Virus record (IMG/VR): IMGVR_UViG_3300031548_000001
Coordinates: 31,021 to 95,020 of that record
Length of the DNA stretch: 64,000 bases
Reading direction: 5' to 3' (one strand)
From: a virus
In this document: positions 7,928 to 63,900 of the stretch, in pieces
How the letters are laid out: every line of letters begins with the position of its first letter
Position numbering within the stretch: position 1 is the first letter of the stretch
Position numbers and translations under genes: made by a program
The notes under the pieces: model-generated
The model's input: the letters and a program-made list of their open reading frames with translations, nothing else
Database searches by the model: none
Told to the model about the DNA's origin: nothing

Positions 7928-8214
7928 GGTTCTAACCTCGGCTCGTTAAAAAGTCTTCCGAGGCGATCGATTTCGTAGCAGGCGTCATCCGACAGCGTAT
8001 CCACGAACGCGGCATCTTTGCCGGTCACGAATTGAATGAAGTCCGGCAGCGACGACACGACGTCGAGATACTTGCTGAGCTCACGAATAGGAACCAAACG
8101 GACTTTGACCTCAATGTCTTCGCCCTTGTGGTTCTTCACCGTTATGGTTTGGCCGAGGTTCATAAGAACGTCGGCAGGGATTGTGGCCTTATCGGCCTGT
8201 GCTTCGGGTTTCAT
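7828..8214 (-). CDS. Tail assembly chaperone (gpG-like)
   Basis: Between the tail tube and tape measure genes; contains a slippery heptamer. Confidence 0.8.
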   Translation of the reverse strand: MKPEAQADKATIPADVLMNLGQTITVKNHKGEDIEVKVRLVPIRELSKYLDVVSSLPDFIQFVTGKDAAFVDTLSDDACYEIDRLGRLFNEPRLEPFLARQRELLNRVAEITTNVRKAIASAISSQTQ

Positions 8215-8246
8215 TTCGGGTTCGGAATCGGGTTTGTTTCGGGTTC

Positions 8247-8276
8247 AAAAAAGCCCCGCCCATTTACAGGCGGGGC
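8247..8276 (-). terminator. Intrinsic terminator after the tail tube gene
   Basis: GCCCCGCC/GGCGGGGC hairpin + U6. Confidence 0.8.
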
Positions 8277-8297
8277 GAAAGAGTCGCAGTCCAAGAC

Positions 8298-8996
8298 TTA
8301 AGCCGTCGAGGCGTCGTGCTCGACGGTCACTTCCTCGTGAGCCTCGAACACAATGGTTGCCTTGGCGACTTCACTGTTCTTGAAGCCGATGCCACCATCG
8401 AGCTTGGCCGTGCAGGTGAAGAGGTTCGTGAGGATGGCGACCGTGTTGGCGGCATCATCCGGATCGGTGATGTAGAGCTGCACGCGGCCCTTCTTGAGAC
8501 CGGACAAACGGCCCGGGAAGATGTTATCGAGCCACTTCACTTCCTCGATTTCGAACTTGAAGGACTCGTCCTGGCCGACGAGCACCTCGCGGTCGGTGCG
8601 CATGACGCCATTCGCGTCGGGCACCTTGCGCTTCACCGTCTCCATCGCCTGTTCGTAGTTCACGGTCTTTCCGACGAAATCAGCAACAGGTGTGATGGTG
8701 GCAGTGCCATCAGCAGTGAAGAGGAGTGCGGTGCCACCGCTGGTCGCGGCGACTTGGAACGTGCCGGAAGCTGCACCGACGACGAACTTGAAGCCACTGG
8801 TGAGGCCGGTAAGGCCAGTGAGCACGGTAACCAAAAGCACTTGGCCATTGATAAAACCGTGGTCATTCTTGGTGAACAAATCGGTGGCGGCGGTGCCGGG
8901 GACTGCAACGAGCGCGGCGGCGTCGCCGATGAATCGTGCGTAGGACTTCTGGGCGACTACGGTCATAGTCGGATCAAAGGTGACGTCAGGTAGCAT
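8298..8996 (-). CDS. Major tail (tube) protein
   Basis: Position, 232 aa beta-rich, own promoter and downstream terminator. Confidence 0.7.
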   Translation of the reverse strand: MLPDVTFDPTMTVVAQKSYARFIGDAAALVAVPGTAATDLFTKNDHGFINGQVLLVTVLTGLTGLTSGFKFVVGAASGTFQVAATSGGTALLFTADGTATITPVADFVGKTVNYEQAMETVKRKVPDANGVMRTDREVLVGQDESFKFEIEEVKWLDNIFPGRLSGLKKGRVQLYITDPDDAANTVAILTNLFTCTAKLDGGIGFKNSEVAKATIVFEAHEEVTVEHDASTA

Positions 8997-9038
8997 GGTC
9001 GTATTGGGTTCGGGTTCGGGTCTCTATCGGTTGCGGAC

Positions 9039-9067
9039 CATGCACGCCGCCGTTTCCTGCTCGTCAA
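9039..9067 (-). promoter_or_regulatory. Late-type promoter TTGACG-N17-TGCATG
   Basis: Directly after a terminator, before the tail tube gene. Confidence 0.55.
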
Positions 9068-9077
9068 TTTTTTCGAC

Positions 9078-9113
9078 AAAAAAACTGGCAGGCTCCTTTA
9101 GGAACACTGCCAG
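9078..9113 (-). terminator. Intrinsic terminator after the lipoprotein gene
   Basis: CTGGCAG/CTGCCAG + U7. Confidence 0.7.
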
Positions 9114-9128
9114 CACCTGAAAAACCGC

Positions 9129-9542
9129 TCACTGAATATCCGTCCAGATACCCTCACGCGTGCTGTAAGCGATCATCTTGTTATCCCGAAAAAGGAACTT
9201 GTAGGGCGTGAATCCGACGTAGCCACCATAACTGTTTTTCGCGTTCACATTCACCGGAACGAACCAGCCTACCTTGTCGATACCACCACCGGCCAAAGGC
9301 GGCTTTGAGATGAAGCCACTGTAGGGCTTGTGGAAATCATATTGAGCAGAGTCAGGGTCCTTGAGTGTGTATTTCATGAAGCCGCGAATCGCTGGCTCAT
9401 ACGTCTCTTTGGCCGGTTCAACGCCGTATCCAATGGCGGCAGCCTGCTGCAACGCCTGGGCTTTGGGCACTTGGCAGCCAGTCAGCAGGCCAGCAGCAAC
9501 AACGACAGCGGACAAAAAAAAGGCTCGAAATAGATTTTTCAT
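9129..9542 (-). CDS. Lipoprotein moron (possible superinfection exclusion)
   Basis: Lipobox LLTGC; LKDPDSA...VNAKNSYGGYVG motif seen in phage lipoproteins. Confidence 0.7.
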   Translation of the reverse strand: MKNLFRAFFLSAVVVAAGLLTGCQVPKAQALQQAAAIGYGVEPAKETYEPAIRGFMKYTLKDPDSAQYDFHKPYSGFISKPPLAGGGIDKVGWFVPVNVNAKNSYGGYVGFTPYKFLFRDNKMIAYSTREGIWTDIQ

Positions 9543-9614
9543 CTACGTCGAGCCTTGAACTGGTTTCCTGCAATTGGCCAGCAGGAAGGGATCGGGCGAT
9601 TCCCAGACGTAGTA

Positions 9615-10220
9615 TCAGTGAACTTGAATTTCGCGCAGACCACCGGGCAAACCGAGTTTCCGGCGCGACTTCAACGCGAGCATCGCCCATTGCGTTGCCC
9701 ATTCAAGGTCACGCTCGGTGATGTCCACCCCTTCGAGGTAAGCCGACTCCCAGGCACCATAGCCGACGCTGTCGAAGTATAACGAAATCCGACCCAGTGG
9801 GCATCCTTGCCCGATGCTTACCGTGTGCGTGTGTTCGTCCTTGTCCTTAGGCGAGTGCCAGAGGTTGATCTCTCCGATCCAGCCGCCGCCGCCCCACGAA
9901 CCGTCACGCCGCCATTGCACGTAGGCGCAGGGGTATTTCGTGCCGTTACCGAAGTAGTGACGGATGGTAAGCCCGGCCGGCACGGTCTTGAGCGCCTTGT
10001 CGATCCACGAGGGCTGGAAGCGGAGGCGGCACCACTGGTAGTTCAGATACCAGGCGAGAGCCACGAGGTAGTGGAGAGGCCAAAGCACCAATACGTTTTC
10101 GTTGCGGCTGGCGTCGTAGTAGGCGCGAGCGTGATACCAGCGAGGCTTTAGTTCTATACAGAGGCGGGTGAGGAAGATCGCTTTGATGCGGTCGAGTCGT
10201 GTGGGTGGATTCGTTTTCAT
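9615..10220 (-). CDS. Hypothetical protein
   Basis: Start reassigned to ATG 10220 (MKTNPP), directly after a CCCGAA leader. Confidence 0.6.
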   Translation of the reverse strand: MKTNPPTRLDRIKAIFLTRLCIELKPRWYHARAYYDASRNENVLVLWPLHYLVALAWYLNYQWCRLRFQPSWIDKALKTVPAGLTIRHYFGNGTKYPCAYVQWRRDGSWGGGGWIGEINLWHSPKDKDEHTHTVSIGQGCPLGRISLYFDSVGYGAWESAYLEGVDITERDLEWATQWAMLALKSRRKLGLPGGLREIQVH

Positions 10221-10264
10221 ATCGTTTCGGGTTCGGGTTTCGTGATCCAGATTGACCACTAAAT

Positions 10265-10543
10265 TCAATTTGAGCAGCGGGCCCGGCGAATACGGCTCTT
10301 GCGAACCATGCGCTGACACTCGCGCATCATGCCCCAAATCTTCGGAGGGCGTGAGGTTCCCATAAGCATGTAATCACTCCGCCGACGACGACGGACCTCA
10401 AACGGAACGATAACCTGCGCAGGTGCTGTTGGCACCGGATTGGATGGCGCGTGCTGAGCCGCAGGCGCTGGCGCGTATGTGATCGCCTGCGCGGGAGCCG
10501 GCGCAACAGCTGAAGAGAATAGGGAAAGCAGTTCGATAATCAT
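10265..10543 (-). CDS. Hypothetical protein
   Basis: ATGA overlap with the upstream gene. Confidence 0.45.
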   Translation of the reverse strand: MIIELLSLFSSAVAPAPAQAITYAPAPAAQHAPSNPVPTAPAQVIVPFEVRRRRRSDYMLMGTSRPPKIWGMMRECQRMVRKSRIRRARCSN

Positions 10544-10869
10544 TGTGGCATGAGCGGCACGGTTTGGCCGGCGAGTGGGTGAGTGCAGTCGGCGAGAAAT
10601 TGGATTTGCCCGTCGCGCACGAATGAGTGGCAGCGCCGCGCCGGGATGTCGTCAGGGCCAGCGCCGCCGTAGGTCACTACGAGACTCGGCTCGAATGTAG
10701 GGCGAACCATATCGCCGTTCCATCGCCACTGAGCGCCGTTGCTCGCAGGCTTCGACGTCCACACGCCATGCTCGATCCGGCAGCCAGGGCAGAAGAACAC
10801 GACGTCGGGCATGTTGACGCGCTCACACGTGGGCGCGGCGATGCGGTGCAGGACGGGGGGCGTGCTCAT
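10540..10869 (-). CDS. DUF6527-like Cys/His protein
   Basis: FCPGC..H, W.WNGD..RPTF.PS, CHSFV.DG.IQFL.DCTH.LAG motifs. Confidence 0.75.
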   Translation of the reverse strand: MSTPPVLHRIAAPTCERVNMPDVVFFCPGCRIEHGVWTSKPASNGAQWRWNGDMVRPTFEPSLVVTYGGAGPDDIPARRCHSFVRDGQIQFLADCTHPLAGQTVPLMPQ

Positions 10870-11429
10870 TCGGTGTAGTCGGCGTTGGTGACGGGTGCGG
10901 AACGGCGGTTGGCTCGGCGGCCGTTTGCGATGCCGAAGATGATGTCGATCTCAGCAACGAAGCTCAGGTCGTTGATCTCCGACATGCGGCACTCCGTCGT
11001 GAACTGCTCGCTCAGTAGCTGAATCGGATGCCCTCCCTTAAGCAGCGGCGTTCCGTCTTTGCGGTGCAGCGTAAGCAAGGTGTCGGACTCGCCGGTGCTT
11101 GGGCTGATCTCGATCGCATCCATGACCTTTTCGACCCAGTTGTAGAGGCCGTCCTTTTGGGTGGGGTCCATCGATACCCAGCCATTCTTGCGGCTTGTCT
11201 TCACGAAAAGCGTGATTCGGCCATCCGTGCGACCGACGCTATCCTTGATGCCCAGTTCGGTCATTGTGACCTGCGGCAGGTCCTTTTCACCGTCGATTCG
11301 GTATTCACCGTTGGGCTTAACCTTCAGGCCATCGAGCAAGCCGTTTGGCTTGTCGTTACCCGCATCAACAGGCCGGGCTTGAAGCTCAAGGCGTGTCCAG
11401 ACTTCACGAAGTGCAGCTACGTAGATCAT
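10866..11429 (-). CDS. Tail terminator-like protein
   Basis: Position after the gp10-like neck gene. Confidence 0.55.
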   Translation of the reverse strand: MIYVAALREVWTRLELQARPVDAGNDKPNGLLDGLKVKPNGEYRIDGEKDLPQVTMTELGIKDSVGRTDGRITLFVKTSRKNGWVSMDPTQKDGLYNWVEKVMDAIEISPSTGESDTLLTLHRKDGTPLLKGGHPIQLLSEQFTTECRMSEINDLSFVAEIDIIFGIANGRRANRRSAPVTNADYTE

Positions 11430-11929
11430 TTGATGAGTTTCTCCAAAAAGGATTTCACTTGGTTTTTAAGAATCTCCATGGCTCGAGGCCTGAACTTTTC
11501 GACGATGTGCATGGCCTTGATACCGCGGACACGGCGGGCGAGGTAGTAGTCCCGGCCGAACTTGAGCGCCGCATTCCAGCCACCGATCGCAGCGCGAGAG
11601 TTGAGCGGCACGAAGAGGTATTTTTTCGACTTCGGATAGATGTAGCCGCCGTGGCTCGTAGCCGTGCCCGCATTGCCGGTGCCGTGCTCAAGCCAATTCA
11701 TCGCCTTCGAGTTGTTGAACACCAGGCGCTGGGCGATTCCGGTTTTCTCAACTTTCCACTCACGCCGAGTGATGCCTGTATATCGTTTTGGCGTCAGTTC
11801 GACGAGCTCGCGGTAAACCTTCCAGCCGGCGATTTCCACCGGTTGATCAAACGCCTCGTCACGGAGCGCATTGAGCATGACGCCGATCTTCTGTTCGGCG
11901 TCACCGGTGCTGAAATCGGTCGAGAACAT
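11426..11929 (-). CDS. HK97 gp10-like neck protein
   Basis: TP..TG..RR.W, LEHGT, IYPK motifs. Confidence 0.75.
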   Translation of the reverse strand: MFSTDFSTGDAEQKIGVMLNALRDEAFDQPVEIAGWKVYRELVELTPKRYTGITRREWKVEKTGIAQRLVFNNSKAMNWLEHGTGNAGTATSHGGYIYPKSKKYLFVPLNSRAAIGGWNAALKFGRDYYLARRVRGIKAMHIVEKFRPRAMEILKNQVKSFLEKLIK

Positions 11930-12561
11930 CAGATCACCTGCATGCGGTAGCGGTTGAGTGATCCGGTCAGGTCAGGCGGCAGATTACGCACTGTCGCCAC
12001 TTGGCGAGAGCCATCAGCCGCAACGAACTCGCGCTTCACCAAGCCGCTGCGGATCGCCGCCAACACACGGCAGACGGTGCCCACTTCCTGAGGCAGATCC
12101 GTGCACGGCACCGCCAAGGGCGTCGTGGTCGCTGGCGTGAAACCAAACACACCCGTGAGCTCGATACGTGGGGGCAAGGCAAACGTGCGATTGGATCCGA
12201 AATAGGCCTGCTGTTTCTGCCAGCGACCGATCCGGATGATCTTGGCTGTCGACCGCGGCACGCTGTTTTCAAACGTGTATTGATCGGTCGCCAGCTCCAC
12301 ACCGTCCACCGTGATCTTCGTGAGCGTCCGCACCGGCATCGGCAGATAGATTACGTTTTCCGCGCACCAGCCAGAAAGCACCGACAAAGGAGACGAAGCG
12401 TGATCATGAGCGAGGAAGTCGCGGCGGCAGTAGTCATCAATCCATCGGCTCGCCCAGTTGATCTCGCTCTGTAGATCTGCGACAGAGTCCGGAGTGTCGT
12501 TGCGGGTCTCGGTCTGCACCTCTTTGAGCGTGCAGTAGGGATTGAGGAGCGTGGTGCTCAT
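11929..12561 (-). CDS. Head-tail adaptor
   Basis: YCTL.EV, I..ASRWID.YC.R.F motifs. Confidence 0.8.
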   Translation of the reverse strand: MSTTLLNPYCTLKEVQTETRNDTPDSVADLQSEINWASRWIDDYCRRDFLAHDHASSPLSVLSGWCAENVIYLPMPVRTLTKITVDGVELATDQYTFENSVPRSTAKIIRIGRWQKQQAYFGSNRTFALPPRIELTGVFGFTPATTTPLAVPCTDLPQEVGTVCRVLAAIRSGLVKREFVAADGSRQVATVRNLPPDLTGSLNRYRMQVI

Positions 12562-12779
12562 GCGGTGTTGATGGTGATTGCGGATTTATTCTGCATCGCA
12601 GCGCGGCATGAGGGCAGGTGAGCTGCGCGATATTTCTTCATCTCTTCATCGAAATCGCGCACGACCGCGGCACGGCCCGCGCTGTTTGCGACGTTCAGGC
12701 GGCGGATAAGCAGGTCGCGTGTGGGGTTATCGAGAGGTGAGTCTTCGATCTGTTTTGCGAGTTTTTCTGGGCTGGACAT
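12558..12779 (-). CDS. Hypothetical protein
   Basis: MSSPEKL start after a CCCGAA leader; the longer ORF-track start would cross a terminator. Confidence 0.5.
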   Translation of the reverse strand: MSSPEKLAKQIEDSPLDNPTRDLLIRRLNVANSAGRAAVVRDFDEEMKKYRAAHLPSCRAAMQNKSAITINTA

Positions 12780-12825
12780 GGCTTCATTTCGTTTCGGGTT
12801 CGGGTGTGCTCGGACGCTGACAAAC

Positions 12826-12855
12826 AAAAAAGGGGCTCCTTGGTGTGGAGCCCCT
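12826..12855 (-). terminator. Intrinsic terminator
   Basis: AGGGGCTCC/GGAGCCCCT + U-run. Confidence 0.8.
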
Positions 12856-12864
12856 GCGTGAAAG

Positions 12865-13077
12865 TTATTCGTTGCCACCAGGGTTGGTGTCGTCGGCATC
12901 GGCTGGCACTTTATCGCCAGGCTTGGACGCCTTATCCTTGACCGGCTTGAACTGCTCGGGGGCGTGCTTTAACAAGCCTTCGCCCTGCTTTTCGGTGACC
13001 TCGATCACATCGCCATTTTTGACGATGCCGACGCCAGCCAGATTCTGCTCCTCTTTACCAACGTAACGGAATTTCAT
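12865..13077 (-). CDS. Small capsid-associated protein
   Basis: 70 aa downstream of MCP, GDVIEV motif, leader and terminator present. Confidence 0.6.
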   Translation of the reverse strand: MKFRYVGKEEQNLAGVGIVKNGDVIEVTEKQGEGLLKHAPEQFKPVKDKASKPGDKVPADADDTNPGGNE

Positions 13078-13173
13078 TTCAGGTTTTGTTTCGGGTTTCT
13101 GCGACTGCCAGTGAATCCGGCAGCACTCGTTCTGTATCCAAATTTCAAATATCGATTGAGCAGCCCTATAGTC

Positions 13174-13236
13174 AAGAGAAACCCGGCCCCCTTCAGGCCG
13201 GGTTTCATACCCTGAAATGAACTGATCTATCCCGAC
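13174..13236 (-). ncRNA. Candidate sRNA antisense to the phage CCCGAA/CCTGAA-ATGAA start motif
   Basis: TTGACG -35 at 13271-13266; predicted +1 at 13236; seed GAUCAGUUCAUUUCAGGGUAU; terminator hairpin GAAACCCGGCC/GGCCGGGUUUC-UCUU; no ORF. Confidence 0.6.
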
Positions 13237-13282
13237 GCGATTACGTGTTGAGGCAAAAACGAGTTCGTCAATCTATTCGCAC

Positions 13283-13316
13283 AAAAAAGGCCCGGACCAA
13301 TGACGGCCCGGGCCTT
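13283..13316 (-). terminator. Intrinsic terminator after MCP
   Basis: AAGGCCCGG/CCGGGCCTT + U-run. Confidence 0.8.
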
Positions 13317-13339
13317 CGAATCACTCAACTACCGGCTCT

Positions 13340-14920
13340 TTAGCTCGCGTAGTTGTAGCCGAGAACGGCCGCCTTGGTGTTGGCGAGCGACTCGATGGGC
13401 TTGAAGGCGCGGCGGAATGAACCAACCACGAACTTCTGCTGGAGGCTGATGTCCTTGTCCTGCTCGATCATGAAGCCGCGGCGGACGCCCATGATCCAAG
13501 CGGGCTTATAGACGATGAAGATCGAACCCTTGGTGGTGGTCACGCCGTCGTAAACACCGGAGGCGTTGAGGTCTTCACGGACGGCAGCCGAGGCGAGGAT
13601 GTCCATGCCGAAGAGGTTCGGCGCGAGACCGGTGAAGATGCGGGCCGTAGCCTTGTCGCCAGCCTTCTCGGCGGTGAGGGTTTCGGGCAGCATCACGAGG
13701 TCGTTGTAGGCATTGACGCCGGCAACGATCATCAGGTTCTTCGGGTTGAGGCCCCAACGCTTGAGCGCCTTGCGGAGCACGCCGATGTTGCTCGCGGACA
13801 AGCCGCCAGTGGCCAGCGAGATCTTCAGGTCAGCCTGAGCGAGAGCCAGCTTGCGGATACCGTCGAACAGCTTCGCTTGGTGGCGAGCCACGGCATGGAT
13901 GTCCGAGTCTTGGTGCGTCGCGGCGGTGTCACCGTTGATAACAGCGTTTTCGAGCGCTTCGGCGGCAGCCTCACCCAGCTGGGAGAGGATGTTCGGGAGA
14001 ATCGCGATGAGCGAATCTTCGTCGGCCTCGTAGCTGTATTTGACCTTGCCGATGAGCTTCTTCGCCTGGAGGACCAGGTCATCGGTGCCGGGATCGCTCT
14101 CGTCAGGGGTGCCACCCTCGGAACCGGTGTAGAACGTCGGACGGGAGGTGGACAGCGGGTAGGTGTAGTTGTCCGAAGGCATCTGGACCTCGTTCGCCGT
14201 AAGGGCGGCGGCGAGTTGGGACTCCAGATACATGCGGGCGAGGAGCGTGCTGGACAGGGTGGTGTTCATCCACTCGGCACCAGTGCTGGCTCCGGTCGTG
14301 GTGATCGCCTTCTGGGCGTTCACGCCACCAACGCGCAGACGGCCGACGATGCTCTTGACGCGTGCTTCGCCACGGCGCTCGGCATCCTTCAGGACGGAAT
14401 CCTGAATGCCTTCGTTGATGAAGTCGGCGCCCTTCGTCATGACGTTGAGCAGCTGCTTGGCGTCCACCGACAAGTTACCGGCGCGGTGAGCGATCGGGAA
14501 CTCGATGGAGGTGTCATCGTTGTCCTGATGCTGTATCTTGGAGTCCTTGCGGAAACCCTTCAGGGCCTCTGTGACGATGCCCTTGACGTCATCGGACGTG
14601 ATGGTGGCAGGCATGGCAGCTTTGACCTTCTGTGCGAGGGCATCGGCATCGAGGTTCTCGGGCTTGATGCCCTTGACGGCGTCGGCGACGATGGTCTTCA
14701 CCTGTGCTTCGGTGAGGGTGTTGCCGGCGGGGAGAGCGGCCTTAACGGCGTCCTCGACGGTCTTCTTGACGTCCTCGGCGCTCATGCCGTCGTCATCTTT
14801 GACGGCGTTGGCTTTGGCTTGGAGAGCGTTGAGCTCCTTGATTTCGTCGGCGGTGCGATCGGCGACGGCTTTGCTCATGAGTTCCATGAGGCGTTTAAGT
14901 TCTGCGGCGGTGAGTTTCAT
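13340..14920 (-). CDS. Major capsid protein (HK97 fold) with N-terminal scaffold region
   Basis: 526 aa; helical N-terminus; SEG..P.ES, L.AKKL, LENAVINGDT and FDGIRK motifs; after the protease gene. Confidence 0.92.
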   Translation of the reverse strand: MKLTAAELKRLMELMSKAVADRTADEIKELNALQAKANAVKDDDGMSAEDVKKTVEDAVKAALPAGNTLTEAQVKTIVADAVKGIKPENLDADALAQKVKAAMPATITSDDVKGIVTEALKGFRKDSKIQHQDNDDTSIEFPIAHRAGNLSVDAKQLLNVMTKGADFINEGIQDSVLKDAERRGEARVKSIVGRLRVGGVNAQKAITTTGASTGAEWMNTTLSSTLLARMYLESQLAAALTANEVQMPSDNYTYPLSTSRPTFYTGSEGGTPDESDPGTDDLVLQAKKLIGKVKYSYEADEDSLIAILPNILSQLGEAAAEALENAVINGDTAATHQDSDIHAVARHQAKLFDGIRKLALAQADLKISLATGGLSASNIGVLRKALKRWGLNPKNLMIVAGVNAYNDLVMLPETLTAEKAGDKATARIFTGLAPNLFGMDILASAAVREDLNASGVYDGVTTTKGSIFIVYKPAWIMGVRRGFMIEQDKDISLQQKFVVGSFRRAFKPIESLANTKAAVLGYNYAS

Positions 14921-15022
14921 TTTTGGTTCTTTCGTTTCGGAATCAGGTGGTGGTTTCGTATCGTTTCGTTTCGGGTTCTCCTGCTACTCCCCGTGGGGTT
15001 TGGTCGCAGAACACAAAGTGGG

Positions 15023-22591: not shown

Positions 22592-22658
22592 TTCGTTTCG
22601 GGTATCTGCCCCCACGAATGACGCAGCGTCGATGTCGTCAAACTCTACGCATGAAAAA

Positions 22659-22868
22659 GGTGAGAGCGGGAGGATTTGAACCTCCGAAGGCTGTAGTCCG
22701 ATTCCCATTCTGGAATCATTCTCCTTTGCGTGAGCGGCGGGACGCTTTTACCACGCAAATTAGCGGAGAATTTTGGCCAGCCCTATGACCCGCATCCTGC
22801 TATTATCTGGTCACTGCATTCGACCTATACGTTTCGTTGCCTACCGCGTATGCCTGTGCCACGCTCTC
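22659..22868 (-). ncRNA. Giant tRNA-like RNA (~210 nt)
   Basis: Acceptor stem GAGAGCG/CGCUCUC + A-C-C; T arm GGAGG-UUCAAAU-CCUCC; D stem GCA/UGC; anticodon stem GUGACC/GGUCAU; variable stem GGGCUG/CAGCCU enclosing nested helices; TTGACC -35 upstream; U-run downstream. Confidence 0.75.
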
Positions 22869-22914
22869 AGGAATTGGGTGGAGCAAATTGACGGATTGGT
22901 CAATTACACACCAA

Positions 22915-27577: not shown

Positions 27578-27858
27578 CAGGCCTGAGCGACAGGGGCAAC
27601 CTTCGGCACGAAACCAAGCTCGATGGCCTCTTCAGGCGAAAGCTTAGCGGCTACCGATTTACGCAACTCAGCTTGCTTGATGATAAGCTCAAGTTTGTCG
27701 GACAGATCTCCAGTAAAATAGATGTTCTCAATGACCATATGAGCGCACGGCCTGCGTTCTTTGGTCGGATCGGTTGCCTGCACTTCAGCATCAAACTGTT
27801 TACAGAGTTCAAACAGACGCGCTGACGCTTCGAGAATACTGGCCTTCGTTTCTTTCAT
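27577..27858 (-). CDS. Hypothetical protein
   Basis: CCCGAA leader; coupled to TerS. Confidence 0.6.
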   Translation of the reverse strand: MKETKASILEASARLFELCKQFDAEVQATDPTKERRPCAHMVIENIYFTGDLSDKLELIIKQAELRKSVAAKLSPEEAIELGFVPKVAPVAQA

Positions 27859-28139
27859 ATCGTTTCGGGTTCGGGTTTCGGATCAATGCTCAGAGGCAAT
27901 GCTGCCGCCGCGCTTCAGACGTGTTGGTGTGGGCGCGTTCAGTATCCTGTCAAAACCTACGTGCTTTTTTGTTTTGCCCGCTGGGCATTACAGCGCCGGG
28001 GGAGGCTCACGGCGGCCCGACTTGGCTTCTGTGCCGTGGCCCAGTCTCAATAAGCTGGTCTCGACCCGCGTTTCCCGACACTTTGAGCTGCCTTATTGAG
28101 ACTGACAGCTCTTTAATGCGCAGGCTTTGCGGTGGGCGC

Positions 28140-28168
28140 TTGACCATGTGGGGGCATGAACGCACACG
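28140..28168 (+). promoter_or_regulatory. Promoter TTGACC-N17-CACACG for the PEP-CTERM gene
   Basis: ATG 7 nt after the -10 element. Confidence 0.5.
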
Positions 28169-28175
28169 TAATAGC

Positions 28176-28892
28176 ATGAAACTCAGGACGATTGCATGGG
28201 CGGCGATGCTTGGTTGCGTCCAATGCCATGCCGCAATCACGAACCTTTTCAGCCTGGGCTTCGATAATCCGGCTGAACCATGGGCCAACTCTGGCACAGT
28301 GTCGTTCACGAACACGGTGGGTAGCCCGGCTGACGGTGTGCTGGATGGCAGTAGCTACGCCTATGGCACCGACTTTGAAGGGACGCTGAGTGGCAACTAT
28401 GGCGTGCAGCTGTGGATCAAGAACCCGGGACTGGTGGGTGAGGGGGAAGACGTCGTGGTGATCTCGATTGGGAATCCTGACACGGATGGCATCTCGCTAC
28501 GATACAACCCCGCAGAGGGCGGATACTTTTCGGCTGTTGGCAATGGCATGGGCGGCGGCGGCGTCTTCAGTGCCGAGCATAGCTTGAGCGAGTGGACGCA
28601 CGTCGGGCTGGTCTATGCTGGCAGCTTCTTCATCTACATCGACGGCGTGCTGGCCGGGACGGTATCCGCTCCGGTGATTGATCCGACGTCGGAATGGTAT
28701 CTGTTCACGAGCGGCGCGACGGCTACCAAGCTGTCAGGCACTGTGGCCGGGATTAATGCCTTCGTCTTTGAGCAGGATGGCTTCGTGGCTGAGGAGGATC
28801 TGGCAATCTTCGCGATACCTGAGCCAGCGTCATGGGCTGGGCTGGCGGGCTTCGCCGTGCTTGGCGTGGCTGTGTGGCGTCGGCGGCGCTGA
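28176..28892 (+). CDS. PEP-CTERM surface protein with LamG-like domain
   Basis: Signal peptide MKLRTIAWAAMLG...; WTHVGLV...YIDG LamG motif; C-terminal IPEPASWAGLAGFAVLGVAVWRRRR. Confidence 0.9.
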   Translation: MKLRTIAWAAMLGCVQCHAAITNLFSLGFDNPAEPWANSGTVSFTNTVGSPADGVLDGSSYAYGTDFEGTLSGNYGVQLWIKNPGLVGEGEDVVVISIGNPDTDGISLRYNPAEGGYFSAVGNGMGGGGVFSAEHSLSEWTHVGLVYAGSFFIYIDGVLAGTVSAPVIDPTSEWYLFTSGATATKLSGTVAGINAFVFEQDGFVAEEDLAIFAIPEPASWAGLAGFAVLGVAVWRRRR

Positions 28893-28957
28893 GGGCGCTG
28901 GCTCGGCGCCGGTAAGTGCTGCTTGCCGATATGGTCGCGCCGTGCGAATAGTGTCCG

Positions 28958-30078: not shown

Positions 30079-30081
30079 GCC

Positions 30082-37479: not shown

Positions 37480-37500
37480 TTCGTTTCGGGTTTCGGGTGT

Positions 37501-39423: not shown

Positions 39424-39442
39424 TTCGGATTCGTTTCGGGTG

Positions 39443-39487
39443 TCTAACAGTGGGCGAGCGTGTCGCCTGAATTTTAAAAGTAAAGAG
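39443..39487 (-). promoter_or_regulatory. Early-type promoter CTCTTTACT...GTTAGA
   Basis: CTCTTTACWTTWA motif also at ~48165, ~52563 and ~58845, each 29-30 nt before GT(C/T)AG. Confidence 0.6.
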
Positions 39488-39489
39488 GA

Positions 39490-42259: not shown

Positions 42260-42383
42260 TTCGTGTTCAGATTCGGGTTCGAGTTTCGGACAATGCGGCT
42301 TTTAGTCCGCACTGGGAGAGACGACTTTACAGAAGAAACCTGTCAAGATTGCTCACGCGATATACGAACGCGTGTTGGCACAA

Positions 42384-46131: not shown

Positions 46132-46361
46132 TTCAGGTATTCGAGTTCGGGTTGGTTGACGGAAAGTAATTGGATGTCGGCGGCGATTCTCCCGCAGCGC
46201 TGGCATGGATCAGTGGTCTCGGCACATCCGTTGTGCCCGCACGGTTCGCCAGGCTTCAGGAAGCGGCGGACCGGCGCAGTTGCCACACGATGCCGAGCCC
46301 CGACCAGCGCCTCGCGCCAGTCGGCATCGGTGATCGTGCGGAACTCGCCTCGCTTCATCAT
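46128..46361 (-). CDS. Small Cys-containing protein
   Basis: C.H.GC....C..C. Confidence 0.4.
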   Translation of the reverse strand: MMKRGEFRTITDADWREALVGARHRVATAPVRRFLKPGEPCGHNGCAETTDPCQRCGRIAADIQLLSVNQPELEYLK

Positions 46362-47459: not shown

Positions 47460-47484
47460 TTCGGGTATCTAGCCGGGGTTGGGT

Positions 47485-48095: not shown

Positions 48096-48129
48096 GATCG
48101 GATTCGTTTCGGGTTCGGGTATCTGACAG

Positions 48130-51516: not shown

Positions 51517-51554
51517 TTCGGGTTCGGATTCGGGTGTCTGACAAAAAACTAAAT

Positions 51555-52506: not shown

Positions 52507-52527
52507 TTCAGGTTCGGGTTTCGGGTC

Positions 52528-52571
52528 TCTGACGGATGGGAGAATCTCCCTAGGTTGATTAAAGTAAAGAG
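52528..52571 (-). promoter_or_regulatory. Early-type promoter CTCTTTACT
   Basis: 29 nt to GTCAGA. Confidence 0.6.
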
Positions 52572-52643: not shown

Positions 52644-53240
52644 TTACTCTTTTTTCGAGAGCACAACACGAATCAACCGGCCATGGTTTTTGCCGATGCC
52701 ATCGAACAAATTTTTGATGGATCCGATCACGATACCGTCTTCGCCATAGTCAAAACGGCTCGGAGCACCTGTGATCTTATCTAAATTGTCCTCGTTCACG
52801 CGAACCTCGAAAATCGTCGTGTTTCCGATGTCGGTGCGGATGACCTTTGCGGAGTCAGGGCGATCCATGAACATCTCCACGGTCTTTTTCAGGAGGGCTT
52901 CGACCGGGGCCATATCCTTCGGCTGACTGAAAGACAGCGCCTTGGCGCCGCCAGTGACGTTCCGCGGGCCGCTCTCGTCTATACTGATATGGCTCTCTCG
53001 GTTGATCTGTTTCGCCAGGTTGCCAATGATCGCTTCCAGCGCCCGGAAATGCTTACCTTTGGCACCGATCACACGAGGAATGTCGTCCGGTGCGGTCTTT
53101 ATGATAAAAGCCACGAGCGGGCCATGGACAGATTGTGTGATTGAGACCTCCTTTGGTTTAACGACAACGCCCCGAACAAGGGAGAGGAGCATGTCGTTCA
53201 AATATGCAATAAGGTGATCGGTTTCGTGTATCGCGTTCAT
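52644..53240 (-). CDS. Tandem KH-domain (KhpA-like) RNA-binding protein
   Basis: Repeat 1: LV..VV.KP.EV.I...D..RVIGAKGKHFRAL..I (GxxG loop); repeat 2: D.P....V....N...ITG...G..IGSIK.L..GIG....R. Confidence 0.8.
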   Translation of the reverse strand: MNAIHETDHLIAYLNDMLLSLVRGVVVKPKEVSITQSVHGPLVAFIIKTAPDDIPRVIGAKGKHFRALEAIIGNLAKQINRESHISIDESGPRNVTGGAKALSFSQPKDMAPVEALLKKTVEMFMDRPDSAKVIRTDIGNTTIFEVRVNEDNLDKITGAPSRFDYGEDGIVIGSIKNLFDGIGKNHGRLIRVVLSKKE

Positions 53241-53266
53241 TTCGGTTTCGCTTTCAGTTAAAACGG

Positions 53267-53307
53267 TCTGACGACAAATCGCTAAACTGCTTGCGAATGC
53301 ATGTCAA
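53267..53307 (-). promoter_or_regulatory. Promoter TTGACA for the KH gene
   Basis: 29 nt to GTCAGA. Confidence 0.55.
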
Positions 53308-53856: not shown

Positions 53857-53890
53857 ATTCGGATTCGTTTCGGGTTATCAGTTCGGGTTT

Positions 53891-55657
53891 CTAACGGGTA
53901 AGGAACTTCCTCACCAAATTCTGCAGGAGCGCGGACTTTGTCACTTCCTCGCCATCGGTTGTCGAGCTTACGATCTTTGCTTTTTCGGACACGATCGCCC
54001 AGAGGTCGTCGTCGATTGTGCCAGGTGCGAGAAAGTAGTAAGCGTTGACGCAATCCTTCTGGCCGATGCGGTGCAGTCGGTCGATGGCCTGCTGGTGTTT
54101 CGTGTGGGTCCACATGAGTTCGGCGATGCCGATGTGCGAGCAGACACCTTGTAGACCATTGATGCCGAAACCGGCCGCGATGATCGAGCCTATGAACACG
54201 CGGCAGCGCTCATCCTTCGCGAACTTCTGGACCTCAGCGCCAACGTCTTTGCAGCCACCGAGCACGACGGCAGGACTCCATTTCTGCAGGCCCTTCACCA
54301 GAGCGGCCTGCACCTCCGGGTGATAGGCGTAGATGACAAACTTCTCGCCGGATTCGAGGAACGTGTCGATCCACTCGATGATCCACTCGACCTTGCCGCG
54401 ACCGGCGGCGGCCCGGAGCATTCCAATCTTGATCATCGCCATAGCCGAGGCCTGCCCATCTGTGAGCAGCGTGCCTTGATTCTGCATTACGACTGCTTTC
54501 GCGTCCTGCTCGATGCGGTCATACTCACCGCGATTGGTGAGTTCGCATTCGTAGATGGATTCGATCTTGTCCGGAAGCTCCTTGAGCACGTCCATCTTCT
54601 TACGACGGATGTAGCAAAGCTGGGTCAGTCGGCCATGCAGCTCCTTCGTGTTCGTGGCGCCGGTCATCTTCATGCCGAACTGGCCGCGCACGTATCCGCA
54701 GTAACGCACCATGAATTTATATTCGTTCTCGAAGTGGTGCATCAGGCCGAAGAAATTCAATGGTGCCAGCCACTCGGACGGATCATTCTCCACCGGGGTG
54801 CCGGACATGATGAAGCGCACCTTTGGATCACACAGTTGAGCGATCGCCGTTGCGGCCATCGACCGACGTGACTCTCTGCGCTTGATGAAGTGGCCTTCGT
54901 CGCAGGCGATACCGACCACCTTATTGAAGGTGGGGAAAAAGTATTTCTTCGTGTCCGCCGCAGCCTCCTTGCGCTCCTTGGCCTTCGGTGAGGCGAGCAT
55001 GAAGTTCACGTAGTTGTGCACCTCGGAGTAGCCCATGATCGTGATCTCGGCCAAGTCATTGGCTCGGACACTGGCCTTCCGGTGCGGAAGCCATTTGCGG
55101 CACTCAACCAGCCAGTTCTGCTTGAGCTTCACCGGGCACAGGATCAGCGCCGGGAATGCCTGGGACATCTCAAGCGCGGCCAGCGTTTGGAGTGACTTAC
55201 CAAGGCCCATGTCGTCGCCATTGTAGGCCCGCAGCTTATCGACCATGAAGCGGACGCCGACCTTCTGGTAATTCTTGAGCGCCTGCACCAGATGAGGGGC
55301 CGAGGGGATCTCGATTTCAACCTGCTCCTCGCTGGACGCCTGATCCTTCGCCGCGGCAGCCGCGATGCGCTTCATGTCCTCGCTCAACCGGGTGCGAGCG
55401 TCCTTGGTCGGGGTAATGCCCCAGCCGACGAGCTTGGTCAGGCACTTCGCCGCATCGTCGCCAGGCTGGATGTTCCACGAGTATCGGCGGGCGTCGTAAG
55501 ACTTCTGGCTGAGCTTCTTCACGAGCTCCACGCACATCAGGTATTCCTGACGTTCCTTCTGCATGTAACCGGCGTCGAAAGTCAGCGTGAACTCGCCGCC
55601 GACGAAGAAGAGAACACCCTTGCGGATGTTTTGTGAGACTTCGGCAGTCAGGCTCAT
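53891..55657 (-). CDS. SNF2/HARP-like helicase
   Basis: YQ..GV, DDMGLGKS, DEGH.IK, SGTP..N, Q..DR.HRIGQ. Confidence 0.9.
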   Translation of the reverse strand: MSLTAEVSQNIRKGVLFFVGGEFTLTFDAGYMQKERQEYLMCVELVKKLSQKSYDARRYSWNIQPGDDAAKCLTKLVGWGITPTKDARTRLSEDMKRIAAAAAKDQASSEEQVEIEIPSAPHLVQALKNYQKVGVRFMVDKLRAYNGDDMGLGKSLQTLAALEMSQAFPALILCPVKLKQNWLVECRKWLPHRKASVRANDLAEITIMGYSEVHNYVNFMLASPKAKERKEAAADTKKYFFPTFNKVVGIACDEGHFIKRRESRRSMAATAIAQLCDPKVRFIMSGTPVENDPSEWLAPLNFFGLMHHFENEYKFMVRYCGYVRGQFGMKMTGATNTKELHGRLTQLCYIRRKKMDVLKELPDKIESIYECELTNRGEYDRIEQDAKAVVMQNQGTLLTDGQASAMAMIKIGMLRAAAGRGKVEWIIEWIDTFLESGEKFVIYAYHPEVQAALVKGLQKWSPAVVLGGCKDVGAEVQKFAKDERCRVFIGSIIAAGFGINGLQGVCSHIGIAELMWTHTKHQQAIDRLHRIGQKDCVNAYYFLAPGTIDDDLWAIVSEKAKIVSSTTDGEEVTKSALLQNLVRKFLTR

Positions 55658-56115: not shown

Positions 56116-56117
56116 GG

Positions 56118-56615: not shown

Positions 56616-56645
56616 TTCGGGTTCGGGTGTCTTTCTAAAATTGGG

Positions 56646-58431: not shown

Positions 58432-58475
58432 TTCAGGTATTATTTCGGGTTCGAGTATCTAACGAAAACGTGGGC

Positions 58476-58781: not shown

Positions 58782-58809
58782 AAATTCATTTCGGATTCGG
58801 GTTCGGGTG

Positions 58810-58853
58810 TCTGACGTGGTTTAGAGACCACGAAGAATTATTAATGTAAAGAG
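58810..58853 (-). promoter_or_regulatory. Early-type promoter CTCTTTACA
   Basis: 29 nt to GTCAGA. Confidence 0.6.
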
Positions 58854-58860
58854 TTTATTT

Positions 58861-60789: not shown

Positions 60790-60824
60790 TTCAGTTCGGG
60801 TTCGTTTCGGGTTTGGGTGTCTGA

Positions 60825-61010: not shown

Positions 61011-61064
61011 TTCTGGTTGGTTTTTGGGTTCAGGTCTCTGGCAAATAGAGGTGGGCTGCTTCTG

Positions 61065-61445
61065 CTACCAATCTATGTCGATGGTGTATTCTCCCGCATC
61101 GAGCAGGCCCTTCGCGTGCAGGTCGTTCGCCACCATTTGCACGTCGGGGTAGAAGTTACGGTCCCACCACAGCGACAGACAGTAGTCTTCCTGCCGTCCG
61201 GGCAGCTTTTGCTTTGGGTCTCTCGCGAGCCATGCCGCAAAGCTCACGCCGCGTTCGGAATGGTTCACGACTTCGGGCACGGACCCGCGCTCGTAGTCAT
61301 CAGCCGGAGCAGGCACACGCAGGCGGAAGACTCCGCGAGGCTTGCACCCGTCCTGCTGCTGAAATGAGTATTCTCGCCCATAGGTTTTCTTCTCGAGCGC
61401 ATCCCATTCGGATACGTCGATCACTTGTTCTGTTCGTATTTTCAT
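61065..61445 (-). CDS. Hypothetical protein
   Basis: 126-aa ORF with phage-like codon usage. Confidence 0.6.
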   Translation of the reverse strand: MKIRTEQVIDVSEWDALEKKTYGREYSFQQQDGCKPRGVFRLRVPAPADDYERGSVPEVVNHSERGVSFAAWLARDPKQKLPGRQEDYCLSLWWDRNFYPDVQMVANDLHAKGLLDAGEYTIDIDW

Positions 61446-61464
61446 TGGTGATTAGGAGGTTGGA

Positions 61465-62862
61465 TCAACCTTTGTAGTCGATGACCACGGGCATGCCGTT
61501 TGGGTGGGTGTCGCAGACCTTGTAGCGCGGCTCGCCCTCGTAGATCTCGGCGAGGTTCACCTCGAACGGCGTCGAGCCCCCCGGGGCCATTACCTTCGTC
61601 ATCTTCGGCGCTGTAGCCTTGGCTTGAACTTCCAGCACGAACGCCATCGCATCGGTGGAGTAGCCGCCATCCATGATCACGTCAGCGCGGCACTCGTTCT
61701 TCGCATTGCGGCCAAAAATCCAGCCCCACGAGTAGGGCTTGCCGTCCTGACCCTTGTGACCATTGCGGGCCATCAAGTAGTCGGAGGCGCGGACCTTTTG
61801 GGCCAGCAGCTCGAAGCAGCCGACCGTCTTGTTGTGCTTCCGCCAAAAGTTCTTCATCGCCACGTCGCGCCTGTCCCCCTTCGTGGGCATCTTCACCTCC
61901 GGCACGATCCGCGCCAGTGCGCCCATCACCTGCCGCCATGGAAAGTCTTTCCCCTTCGGGTCATCTTCTGACACGAGCGCGAGGTCGGCGGGGGGAACCC
62001 TGCTGGCGGTCTCTGACGCACGCGCCTGTCGTTCCTCTTCCATCGCCGCAAGGTCGCCAGCATCAATGCCAGTCTCCTCACCATCACAAACGCCGACGGC
62101 TTCAGCCGGCGGGTTTAATCCTTTAGGATTAAACGTAGTATCTGCCTCTGCTTCTGCCTCTGCTTGTGTTGACGTAGTTGACAGATTCGTAGTTGTAGCC
62201 GGAAGCAACGCATTGGACTTCGTAAGTTGATCAATCAATGCGAGGACTTCGGGTGTCTTCCTGAACCAGTCTCCCTGTATGCGATGAACCGAAATGCATT
62301 CCTTTACAGCGACTACCTTACTTTCATTCCCTTCTATTATGGCCAGAATCTCAGCGTTCGCGTGTGCTTTCTTCGTTTCACTTAGGCGAGCCCAAGGATT
62401 AACACTGAAGCCAATTTTTACGCATCCGTTCGCAGCTACGAAAAACAAGTAGCCGTCTCGTAGTTTTGTCGTAGTTGGCTTCGTAGCTACGCTCGTAGCG
62501 ACCTTGGCGCGGTGCTCAGCCTGCTTCACGCGGAGGTATTCACGCCGAGCCTCGGTGTCCTGCTTGTCTCGATATTTCGCGTAATTGGTCAGCGCCCAGC
62601 CCCCGTCGATTTTGTATATGCGTCGGCCATCGTTCTCCGGTGACCTGGAGAACTGATCGGGCGATTCGAGGGTGGCGATCGCATCAATCGTTTCCTGCAT
62701 GCTCAGGCGGGCACGGTCGGCCAGGCCCGGGATTGATGCCTCGATGACGCCGTCTTTGTCCGCCATCGCCAGCAGGGTGATGAACAGGATGCGCGTGGGG
62801 TTCGCCTCGCGCCAGATCGTCGAGTCGAGGATGCTGGAATGCAGCTTGGTGAATCCGCTCAC
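61465..62862 (-). CDS. Replication initiator-like protein with an inserted T5orf172/GIY-YIG domain
   Basis: FTKL.SSIL.STIW...L.AMAD..G, PD..SRS...GRRI..GGW...NY..YR; internal YL.F....VKIG.S.NP..R...GDWF; GTGA overlap with the upstream gene. Confidence 0.7.
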   Translation of the reverse strand: MSGFTKLHSSILDSTIWREANPTRILFITLLAMADKDGVIEASIPGLADRARLSMQETIDAIATLESPDQFSRSPENDGRRIYKIDGGWALTNYAKYRDKQDTEARREYLRVKQAEHRAKVATSVATKPTTTKLRDGYLFFVAANGCVKIGFSVNPWARLSETKKAHANAEILAIIEGNESKVVAVKECISVHRIQGDWFRKTPEVLALIDQLTKSNALLPATTTNLSTTSTQAEAEAEADTTFNPKGLNPPAEAVGVCDGEETGIDAGDLAAMEEERQARASETASRVPPADLALVSEDDPKGKDFPWRQVMGALARIVPEVKMPTKGDRRDVAMKNFWRKHNKTVGCFELLAQKVRASDYLMARNGHKGQDGKPYSWGWIFGRNAKNECRADVIMDGGYSTDAMAFVLEVQAKATAPKMTKVMAPGGSTPFEVNLAEIYEGEPRYKVCDTHPNGMPVVIDYKG

Positions 62863-63404
62863 AGGGATGCCTCCAGCTTCGGGATTAAATCTTTCACATC
62901 TTCGATGTGTTGAGCCGTAAGCCTGAACCACTCGCCACGGACACGTAGGTCTGCAAAGTGCAGGTGAAGCATTTCTTCAACACGCGAGTCTGTTTTCTGC
63001 ACGAAAATCAATTCGATCTCAGGCTCCTCTGATTGAAGCGTTTTCTCGCGAAACTCTGGATGGTCCGAGATGCCGATTTTCACGTAACCATTACGAGCGT
63101 TACGCATCATGTATAATTTGGTGCGACGAAAGTTAGGAGCTTTTGTCGGAATAACGGAACTGACGCTTACCATTTCCGATTCCTGCTCCAGCCGGTTGTT
63201 CTGGTTGTAGCTTAATACGGCATCATCGCTCAAAGAGAGTGTGTTTTTAGCTGCCTGAAGGAACGTCTCTACGATTTCCCGTGACGGGACGTAGTAGAGG
63301 CCGTCAAACAGGAAGAAATTCCCATTATCGTCTTTTTCAGCGCGGAGAAAAACGGGACGTGGTTTTCTGTGAATTGTAATTCCAACTGTGCTTTTGTCGC
63401 TCAT
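62859..63404 (-). CDS. T5orf172/GIY-YIG domain protein
   Basis: LY.M.N...YVKIG.S..P..R..LQ, E..LH..F...R.RGEWF. Confidence 0.85.
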   Translation of the reverse strand: MSDKSTVGITIHRKPRPVFLRAEKDDNGNFFLFDGLYYVPSREIVETFLQAAKNTLSLSDDAVLSYNQNNRLEQESEMVSVSSVIPTKAPNFRRTKLYMMRNARNGYVKIGISDHPEFREKTLQSEEPEIELIFVQKTDSRVEEMLHLHFADLRVRGEWFRLTAQHIEDVKDLIPKLEASL

Positions 63405-63424
63405 TTCGGGTTCGGGTATCGGGT

Positions 63425-63712
63425 TTATCGGATCTCTTGCACGTGGTCTTCGGTGACGAAGGCCTGAACGGCGCGACCGCTCGCGCCGATGATGGTCACT
63501 TTGTATTCGGGGATGAGTCCCCGCTTAGTGAAGCCCAACCACTGCTGGTCGATGACCTCGCCGCGCTCTGTGGTCACCTTGCCGCCTTTTCGGCGCAGGT
63601 CGAAGGTGACGAACATGCCGACAAACTTGAAAGGGTAGGGCTCTTTGCCGGGCACAATCTGAGAAGGTTCCGCCGTCCCAGTTGGCTGCGTCATTTCGTT
63701 TCGGGTGTTCAT
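63425..63712 (-). CDS. Hypothetical protein
   Basis: Preceded by stacked leader motifs. Confidence 0.55.
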   Translation of the reverse strand: MNTRNEMTQPTGTAEPSQIVPGKEPYPFKFVGMFVTFDLRRKGGKVTTERGEVIDQQWLGFTKRGLIPEYKVTIIGASGRAVQAFVTEDHVQEIR

Positions 63713-63900
63713 TTCGGGTTCGTTTCGGGTAGGACAAGACTTCGGATTCGGTTCGGTTCATTTCATTTCGGGTTCGGGTGCCGGAACGGCGGAAGGGGGT
63801 GGCAGACGTAGCAACGCCTGCGCAAATGCGATCCAAAGACGAACCATGCCTGTTCACCGGGCTATGTTTGAGACCGCTAGGGTCCACCAATTTGGACAAG

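Follow-up and report, generated by a model that had tools for sequence, protein, structure and literature searches.

The stretch of DNA analysed here, referred to as the window, is the last 64 kb (64,000 nucleotides, positions 31,021 to 95,020) of the linear, 95,020-bp virus record IMGVR_UViG_3300031548_000001, and all coordinates given below are window positions. In this phage and its relatives, about one gene in three opens with a repeat leader, a short array of CCCGAA-like units on the coding strand which typically runs up to the ATG and is often opened by a GTYAG box. But what could such a leader be doing in front of so many genes? Our preferred reading, to which we give a probability of roughly 0.5, is that it is a 5′ untranslated region (5′UTR) working independently of Shine-Dalgarno (SD) pairing, as a single-stranded landing (standby) site for the ribosome. 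Transcripts made by the host RNA polymerase would start from the G in the GTYAG box, and the mRNA would run through one to nine CCCGAA-like units straight into ATG-AA. The host ribosomes would not use SD pairing; the leader would serve them as a single-stranded landing site with the start codon fully exposed, resulting in efficient initiation. The effect of the leader on translation is what we infer from the sequence. Work in E. coli has shown that single-stranded CA-repeat 5′ tails strongly raise initiation and act as standby sites, with a maximum at 16–18 nt (PMC5934652), and in Flavobacterium, which is SD-blind, both structure and upstream bases tune initiation (PMC6847099).

The leader arrays and their conservation

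In the window, the minus strand has 67 copies of CCCGAA and the plus strand 5 (113 and 9 in the entire 95,020-bp record). The minus strand also holds about 100 of the 106 genes called in the whole record, using a crude caller of our own. Part of the strand bias is explained by codon usage, and the position comparison was therefore kept within the coding strand. Here 60 of the 113 copies lie within the 45 nt upstream of called starts, where the density is 13.3/kb vs 0.59/kb elsewhere (23-fold; binomial p=1.7e-48). The initial annotation of the window, which had described a genome-wide, GAA-periodic leader from the letters alone, had proposed such a strand and position enrichment as a check, and the leader passes it. 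Longer combinations also exceed chance: AGAnA followed by CCCGAA has 13 matches, all on the minus strand, where shuffles expect 0.11, and CCGAA running into ATGAA has 9 vs 0.21 expected.

Genome-wide, 31 of 100 minus-strand genes carry a leader under a strict rule (at least two units, with the array end no more than 12 nt from the start), and the whole record has about 40 leaders once single-unit cases are counted. The last unit adjoins the ATG directly in 21 of the 31 strictly called leaders. The assigned start is an ATG in 29 of them, and the remaining two have an ATG within the array. The unit types are CCCGAA (23), ACGAA (17) and TCCGAA (7), all C/A-rich, with almost no U, one invariant G each and a near-invariant YGAA core, and the leaders are composed of 41% A, 36% C, 16% G and 8% U. 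Among 42 arrays of at least two units, 19 have two, 16 have three, 6 have four and 1 has five, with a period of 5–7 nt. Counted over all leaders, the unit number ranges from one to nine, and the leader of the capsid gene extends over 57 nt of ACGAA-type units.

In the window, 24 leaders, all on the minus strand, were checked base by base, which bears out the figure of about 25 starts in the initial annotation. Its description of tandem units also stands, the range being one to nine instead of one to six; the example it quoted before the ATG at 51516 is exact, and its statement that most of these genes begin ATG-AA holds for 18 of the 24. The sites with their checked coordinates, together with the gene of a putative reader discussed below, are:

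63713–63731, minus strand: three-unit array adjoining the ATG at 63712
63405–63425, minus strand: array adjoining the ATG at 63404, beginning right behind the upstream stop codon
60790–60826, minus strand: box and four units adjoining the ATG at 60789 of the primase/helicase gene, the true start lying 48 codons within the longest open reading frame (ORF)
58782–58815, minus strand: GTCAG box and leader with an out-of-frame ATG at 58789, the real ATG being at 58781; CTTTAC at 58846–58851
58432–58463, minus strand: GTTAG box and leader adjoining the ATG at 58431 of the DNA polymerase III beta clamp gene
56616–56639, minus strand: box and two units adjoining the ATG at 56615
53857–53895, minus strand: GTTAG box overlapping the stop codon of the upstream helicase gene, and five units; ATG at 53856
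53241–53277, minus strand: GTCAG box and diverged leader of the tandem-KH gene, ATG at 53240; TTGACA 29 nt before the box
52507–52533, minus strand: GTCAG box and three units adjoining the ATG at 52506; CTTTAC 30 nt before the box
51517–51542, minus strand: GTCAG box and three units adjoining the ATG at 51516, the example of the initial annotation
48096–48127, minus strand: GTCAG box and four units, ATG at 48095; CTTTAC upstream
47460–47472, minus strand: box and one unit adjoining the ATG at 47459
46132–46153, minus strand: three units adjoining the ATG at 46131; the upstream frame ends in an overlapping ATGA
42260–42290, minus strand: five units adjoining the ATG at 42259 of a ParB-like protein gene
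39424–39448, minus strand: GTTAG box and three units adjoining the ATG at 39423; CTTTAC 31 nt before the box
37480–37504, minus strand: box and three units adjoining the ATG at 37479
27859–27888, minus strand: five units adjoining the ATG at 27858, first gene of the packaging block
22592–22609, minus strand: box and two units adjoining the ATG at 22591; TTGAC upstream
14921–14977, minus strand: 57-nt leader of ACGAA type, major capsid gene, ATG at 14920; in the relative G004 (see below) the orthologue also has a long leader of this kind
13078–13100, minus strand: box and leader adjoining the ATG at 13077
12780–12821, minus strand: GTCAG box and four units with an out-of-frame ATG at 12787, the real ATG being at 12779
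10221–10246, minus strand: four units adjoining the ATG at 10220
8997–9027, minus strand: box and leader, then a 12-nt spacer and the ATG at 8996
8215–8251, minus strand: leader directly 3′ of a terminator-like T run, adjoining the ATG at 8214
52644–53240, minus strand: tandem type-II KH protein of 198 aa, candidate reader of the arrays

Leaders are found before structural genes (capsid and neighbours, 8214–14920) and replication genes alike. They had been assigned to operon-first genes, which does not hold strictly; a few lie directly on or inside the end of an upstream ORF. Several arrays start at or over the upstream stop codon, or inside the upstream frame with an ATGA overlap, as at 46131. 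The motif also corrects start-codon calls: at 60789, 52506, 46131, 22591, 12779 and 10220 it places the start 25–48 codons inside the longest ORF, and automatic annotation probably over-extends several genes in these phages. Near the record end, an extra array at 63755–63785 (minus strand) leads into a one-codon mini-ORF, ATG-AAA-TGA, behind which come further units and the array belonging to the 63712 gene.

Are the arrays a peculiarity of one contig? An exact 18-mer made of two units and ATGAA recovered the 84-kb IMG/VR contig 3300039210_000244 (G004) with its near-duplicates, and also a 38-kb contig in an Opitutus metagenome-assembled genome (MAG), here C51. Both are syntenic with the phage at 35–70% protein identity, and their CCCGAA counts on the two strands are 18:115 in G004 and 5:68 in C51. 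Arrays are kept at orthologous starts, including those of the capsid, 51516, KH, clamp and primase genes, with a different number and order of units. In G004, 10 of 14 array-bearing genes are positive (12 of 14 after correcting two window-edge misses), compared with 5% of random positions. Five further metagenome fragments, found through the KH protein (33–71% identity), all have same-strand arrays. Retained as they are across diverged relatives, the arrays appear to be under selection. In 185,579 species genomes the 18-mer has 21 matches vs a rough chance estimate of ~17, and only the contig of the Opitutus MAG is a true relative. A run of three units occurs at no fewer than 120 loci in IMG/VR, mostly coding for Pro-Glu repeats, and among the matches listed none of these other viral loci has multiple start-adjacent arrays. 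The large terminase (TerL) proved of no use as a bait, giving only relatives of 30–33% identity without the CCCGAA bias.

The same comparison bears on whether the repeats do anything at all. They could be neutral passengers of a promoter-leader cassette spread and homogenised by recombination, with no specific role of their own. Mobile promoter cassettes occur in T4-type phages, and the repeat number varies between orthologues, as slippage or recombination would give. However, the CCCGAA-like unit persists at 33–60% protein identity, where neutral intergenic DNA would randomise, and arrays also occur without the promoter part; neutrality is in our view quite improbable.

The relatives are also informative on a second peculiarity of the leaders. 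The initial annotation had noticed that at 12787 and 58789 the motif has its own out-of-frame ATG 8 nt upstream of the real start, and both cases are genuine. The first opens a 30-codon ORF ahead of the real start at 12779; the second precedes 58781, whose frame is shared by the homologues in the relatives. In the leader at 58782–58815, which belongs to a 101-aa gene, each of the three phages has the out-of-frame ATG, 8–10 nt upstream of the real start (equivalent sites at about 78770–78810 in G004 and about 34020–34070 in C51). This conserved ATG could be a decoy or an overlapping small ORF.

The record itself has a CheckV completeness of about 85%, a GC content of 58% and the gene set of a tailed phage (tape-measure, major capsid protein, large terminase, primase/helicase and helicases). 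A megablast of 24 kb against deposited phages gave no match, and Rfam and tRNA (ARAGORN) scans of the entire window, including 22659–22905 on the minus strand, detected nothing. The only plus-strand block, at 27774–31350, encodes a LamG-like protein with a PEP-CTERM sorting signal, UmuD (S24 peptidase), SRAP and UmuC, that is, an SOS-mutagenesis cassette next to a protein of host-envelope type, and is probably host-derived. As initially noted for this insert, it has no CCCGAA leaders. On the minus strand, 38297–42259 holds a cluster of three ParB-like proteins, one of which (525 aa) matches a methyltransferase-linked family, plus a protein with an S-adenosylmethionine (SAM)-methyltransferase fold. 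Phage genes beyond the window encode a C5 methylase, a PAPS-reductase-domain protein and a DUF5131 protein. Together with the cluster, they suggest a heavy investment in DNA modification.

The GTYAG box and the probable transcription start

The opener of the arrays is a box of the form (G)T-Y-A-G-A-n-A, and upstream of it a subset of sites has a T-rich stretch followed by CTTTAC(A/T)TT or TTGAC(A/G). Over this phage and its two relatives, G004 and C51, the spacing from the TT[GT]AC pentamer to GTYAG is 30 nt at 13 sites, 31 at 4 and 29 at 2, and the opposite strand has no such peak. The −10 region is T-rich and not TATAAT-like. In the standard sigma-70 geometry, a 17-bp spacer is followed by the −10 hexamer and then by 6–7 nt to +1, and a 30-nt spacing therefore places the G of GTYAG at the canonical +1. 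This G is probably the transcription start, a role in which the initial annotation had not recognised its GTCAGA-type opener, and the array would then form the whole 5′UTR. Predicted starts at GTYAG lie 13–42 nt upstream of the ATG, and mRNAs with these predicted 5′ ends would not be leaderless. For another 45 box-like sites the upstream sequence is not conserved; about half of these sites are genuine leaders. As another origin of the box, MazF-type cleavage at ACA was considered and rejected by eye, ACA being present only in the AGACA variant.

The structural module has a second promoter-like class, a T run and then AAATTTGAC, at 7481, 15931 and 21157 on the minus strand. These sites are located 16–40 nt before an ATG, lack the CCCGAA leader and may give rise to very short or leaderless mRNAs.

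If the box belongs to a promoter, do the repeats belong to it as well? Box and repeats might act on DNA, as the initiator or initially transcribed region of a phage promoter or as transcription-factor sites, and the closeness of the ATG would merely reflect very short leaders. The fixed 30-nt spacing indeed links the box to promoter-like elements, and with about 40 copies in 95 kb the density would be plausible for promoters. In the phage, no sigma-70 region 2 was found and no T7-type RNA polymerase either (a search run without a positive control), and therefore the host polymerase must be steered somehow. Against this stand the variable unit number (one to nine) and period (5–7 nt), a 6-bp direct-repeat period which mismatches helical phasing, and arrays that occur inside upstream ORFs and without any promoter-like element. 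Moreover, the distance from box to array varies between 1 and 12 nt, whereas that from array to ATG is nearly fixed at 0, which ties the array to the start codon and not to the promoter. Arrays follow CTTTAC-type and TTGAC-type elements, and others have no conserved element upstream. This independence of promoter type favours a role in the RNA, in translation, over a promoter part, and we consider the DNA-level explanation improbable.

Initiation without Shine-Dalgarno pairing and a candidate reader

The initial annotation presented the leader as replacing the SD sequence at the genes which carry it. To what extent is there an SD sequence to be replaced? For each gene, the most stable anti-SD duplex among its first candidate starts was compared with that at in-gene decoy start codons. 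The values for starts and decoys are −3.5 vs −4.5 kcal/mol in the phage, −3.6 vs −4.55 in G004 and −4.1 vs −4.5 in 240 kb of Lacunisphaera (an Opitutaceae MAG), taken as host proxy; the same script detects SD in the E. coli positive control (−6.4 vs −3.9). The motif starts, described as lacking a recognisable SD, do lack it, with a mean duplex of −0.6 kcal/mol and none at −6. The word ‘replacing’ does not survive the comparison: an SD signal is absent from all phage genes and from the Lacunisphaera proxy. The 16S rRNA of Lacunisphaera retains its CCUCC tail, and Akkermansia and the verrucomicrobial strain IMCC26134 have likewise been described as SD-scarce with CCUCC conserved (PMC10783764). 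Pairing of the leader with the whole 16S rRNA was tried with the Lacunisphaera proxy and discarded, the best duplex (−17.0 kcal/mol) being weaker than the shuffled mean (−19.1); UUCGG sites in the 16S rRNA look like tetraloop hairpins.

The leaders are predicted to be open. Mean minimum free energy from −30 to +30 comes to −3.2 kcal/mol for motif starts, compared with −10.9 for other starts and −15.1 for random positions (motif vs random, p=9e-19), and an unstructured leader 5′ of the start is what defines a standby tail.

The ribosomes in question belong to a host which is probably a member of the Verrucomicrobia. Five lines, each of them weak, point to it: a related contig is binned with an Opitutus MAG, the phage encodes a PEP-CTERM protein, its UmuC is 60% identical to one from a Verrucomicrobiota genome, the GC content agrees, and SD-lessness is common to phage and proxy. 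A search of the capsid protein against 401 Verrucomicrobiota genomes found no prophage relatives and is uninformative on the host. Could the leader simply be a generic host leader? This is rejected for the proxies. The comparison with the host proposed in the initial annotation was made on proxies, in which the motif is rare: with the phage contig set aside, three Verrucomicrobiota genomes have the pattern of two units and ATG 2–7 times per ~5 Mb each, which is near control level, and CGAA is not enriched (0.94-fold before Lacunisphaera starts). Lacunisphaera leaders are C/A/T-rich and depleted of SD 4-mers. With CGAA unenriched and host leaders poor in G, the phage leader therefore fits the taste of the host but adds a phage-specific, periodic YGAA. 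The idea of a phage-specific translation enhancer, offered in the initial annotation as one of two possible functions, thus gains indirect support from strand specificity, ATG adjacency, occurrence after promoters of different types and even across upstream stop codons, low structure, conservation and rarity in the host proxies.

Several observations sit badly with a landing site as the whole explanation. Low structure alone fails to explain the near-invariant YGAA core and the 5–7 nt period. Two genes keep an out-of-frame ATG in the leader, which is unexpected of an element that simply serves to maximise initiation at the first ATG. At least 25 boxes have no recognisable promoter upstream, so RNA processing may account for some of the 5′ ends, or the box may have another function. 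The host, for its part, is only deduced, and its proxy does not favour CGAA before its own starts.

Because the strict unit sequence is left unexplained by structure alone, a specific reader is suggested, and the best candidate is the tandem-KH protein encoded at 52644–53240. Its match to the Pfam family KH_KhpA-B (PF13083) has E=7.5e-12 and 45.4 bits, compared with a cut-off of 32.1. An AlphaFold model (pLDDT 88.7) shows two KH domains of alpha-beta-beta-alpha-alpha-beta (type-II) topology. In this model, domain 1 resembles the KH domain of KhpB (Z 10.4, root-mean-square deviation 2.2 Å over 77 residues) and domain 2 that of NusA (Z 7.5, 2.2 Å over 67 residues). The glycines of the GxxG loop, G59 and G62, are invariant in 30 homologues. 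Pfam score, GxxG loop and modelled fold agree in placing the protein among the KhpA/KhpB-type proteins, and RNA binding by KhpA requires the KH motif (bioRxiv 10.64898/2026.10.12.757534). The exact protein (P0003) is recorded on two contigs, the longer of which, at 294,103 bp, is three times as long as the virus record; it may represent a prophage, or a join made in assembly, and would then reveal the host.

How could such a protein use the arrays? They may be its binding sites, with one unit per KH domain, through which it would act on translation, as activator, repressor or timer, or else stabilise the mRNAs, giving the phage a private post-transcriptional code. A conserved unit and a modal number of two to three suit a reader of two domains, and the above-cut-off KhpA/KhpB-type match, the two modelled type-II folds and the invariant GxxG suit an RNA-binding role. 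The KH gene has a consensus TTGACA element. The protein, down to 33% identity, is present in 8 of 8 array-bearing contigs examined (this phage, G004, C51 and the five fragments), all with the same-strand CCCGAA bias, and has only 45 homologues among 5.8 billion proteins. On the other hand, this co-occurrence is confounded by common descent within one lineage, and single-unit leaders exist. On balance we hold KH binding to be unlikely as the explanation of the arrays, if the strongest of the alternatives; it can coexist with the landing-site reading. A combination of the two, in which (CCCGAA)n leaders and the KH protein form a phage-private system of translation initiation, seems doubtful to us. 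The protein would recognise the units and deliver phage mRNAs to SD-blind ribosomes, or withhold them, and phage messages would then outcompete those of the host, or be switched in time, via a code which the host does not use.

A reader made of RNA is also conceivable. An ORF-free unit at about 13170–13232 (minus strand), between the terminator of the capsid gene and the next gene, is a candidate small RNA. It might target unit+ATGAA and thereby silence many genes simultaneously. This ORF-free stretch has a TTGAC element and then a strong hairpin (minimum free energy −29.1 kcal/mol, z = −3.8), and its predicted single-stranded segment carries the only minus-strand copy in the genome of the antisense 10-mer. 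Silencing of C/A-rich enhancers by small RNAs has a reported precedent in GcvB and ACA motifs (PMC3879156). However, such a 10-mer would turn up by chance in 95 kb with a probability of about 0.2, the equivalent in G004 has the hairpin without the complementary segment, and pairing with the commonest CCCGAA leaders would need one base to be bulged. We judge shut-off by this RNA to be very improbable, the least probable of the explanations considered.

Comparison with known systems

A literature search for CCCGAA in phages gave nothing relevant among the ten top-ranked of 58 papers. The arrays can be compared with systems described under other names. For the landing-site reading, a parallel is that of the CA-repeat standby tails (Sterk, Romilly and Wagner 2018, PMC5934652), which are likewise C/A-rich and unstructured, and which enhance initiation with no added SD pairing, with an effective length (16–18 nt) resembling these 5′UTRs. 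They are engineered and act beside an SD, whereas the arrays are natural, genome-wide and SD-free, with a conserved hexamer that contains a G. In a eukaryotic virus, the omega leader of tobacco mosaic virus is a CAA-rich, unstructured leader which raises initiation.

The Bacteroidia (Baez et al. 2019, PMC6847099; Jha et al. 2021, PMC7797042) also do without SD despite a conserved anti-SD, relying on low structure and upstream bases. Their preferences are diffuse (e.g. A at −3), whereas the phage leader is a discrete repeat with G at −3. SD-independent choice of the start codon has been studied almost only in this group, and here a phage lineage has written the signal explicitly, in repeated and easily mutable form. 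With one to nine units, unit variants and out-of-frame decoy ATGs at about 40 genes, the leaders are a natural test set for two questions: do SD-blind ribosomes use single-stranded landing sites, and can a phage protein mark mRNAs?

The second function proposed in the initial annotation was that of a binding array for an oligomeric protein like TRAP. In Bacillus, TRAP and HutP recognise purine-rich triplet repeats with short spacers in leaders; TRAP uses 9–11 repeats with 2–3 nt spacers at one or few operons, acting by attenuation or SD occlusion. GAA triplets repeated with short spacers are the likeness, but the arrays mostly have two to three units with a 5–7 nt period at about 40 genes, and no TRAP gene (TrpBP, PF02081) was found in the virus record, the B. 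subtilis control being positive; the analogy does not stand, though the idea of an RNA-binding protein survives in another shape, that of the tandem-KH candidate. Genes for CsrA and bS21 were not found in the phage either.

ACA enhancers targeted by GcvB (Yang et al. 2014, PMC3879156) are reported to be likewise C/A-rich, located just upstream of the start and maskable by a small RNA. They lie upstream of a normal SD in enterobacteria, whereas the arrays are SD-free and their link to a small RNA is weak.

The closest known system is the start-associated sequence (SAS) of Cluster K mycobacteriophages (Pope et al. 2011, PMC3203893). Both are asymmetric motifs present in many copies and in one orientation, located within a few bases of the starts, mostly at genes after an intergenic gap, with a strong preference for ATG. 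Both are conserved across subclusters or relatives, and a translational function is presumed for both. The SAS is nearly absent from host genomes; for the arrays the comparison is with candidate hosts, in which they are rare. The SAS, however, is a single 13-bp motif with an AGGAG SD core, restricted to the non-structural half of the genome, whereas the arrays are tandem with a variable number of units, have no SD complementarity, adjoin the ATG, are found in structural and replication modules and begin at the probable transcription start. The arrays are thus an SD-free counterpart to the mycobacteriophage SAS, which argues that such motifs are something more than strong ribosome-binding sites.

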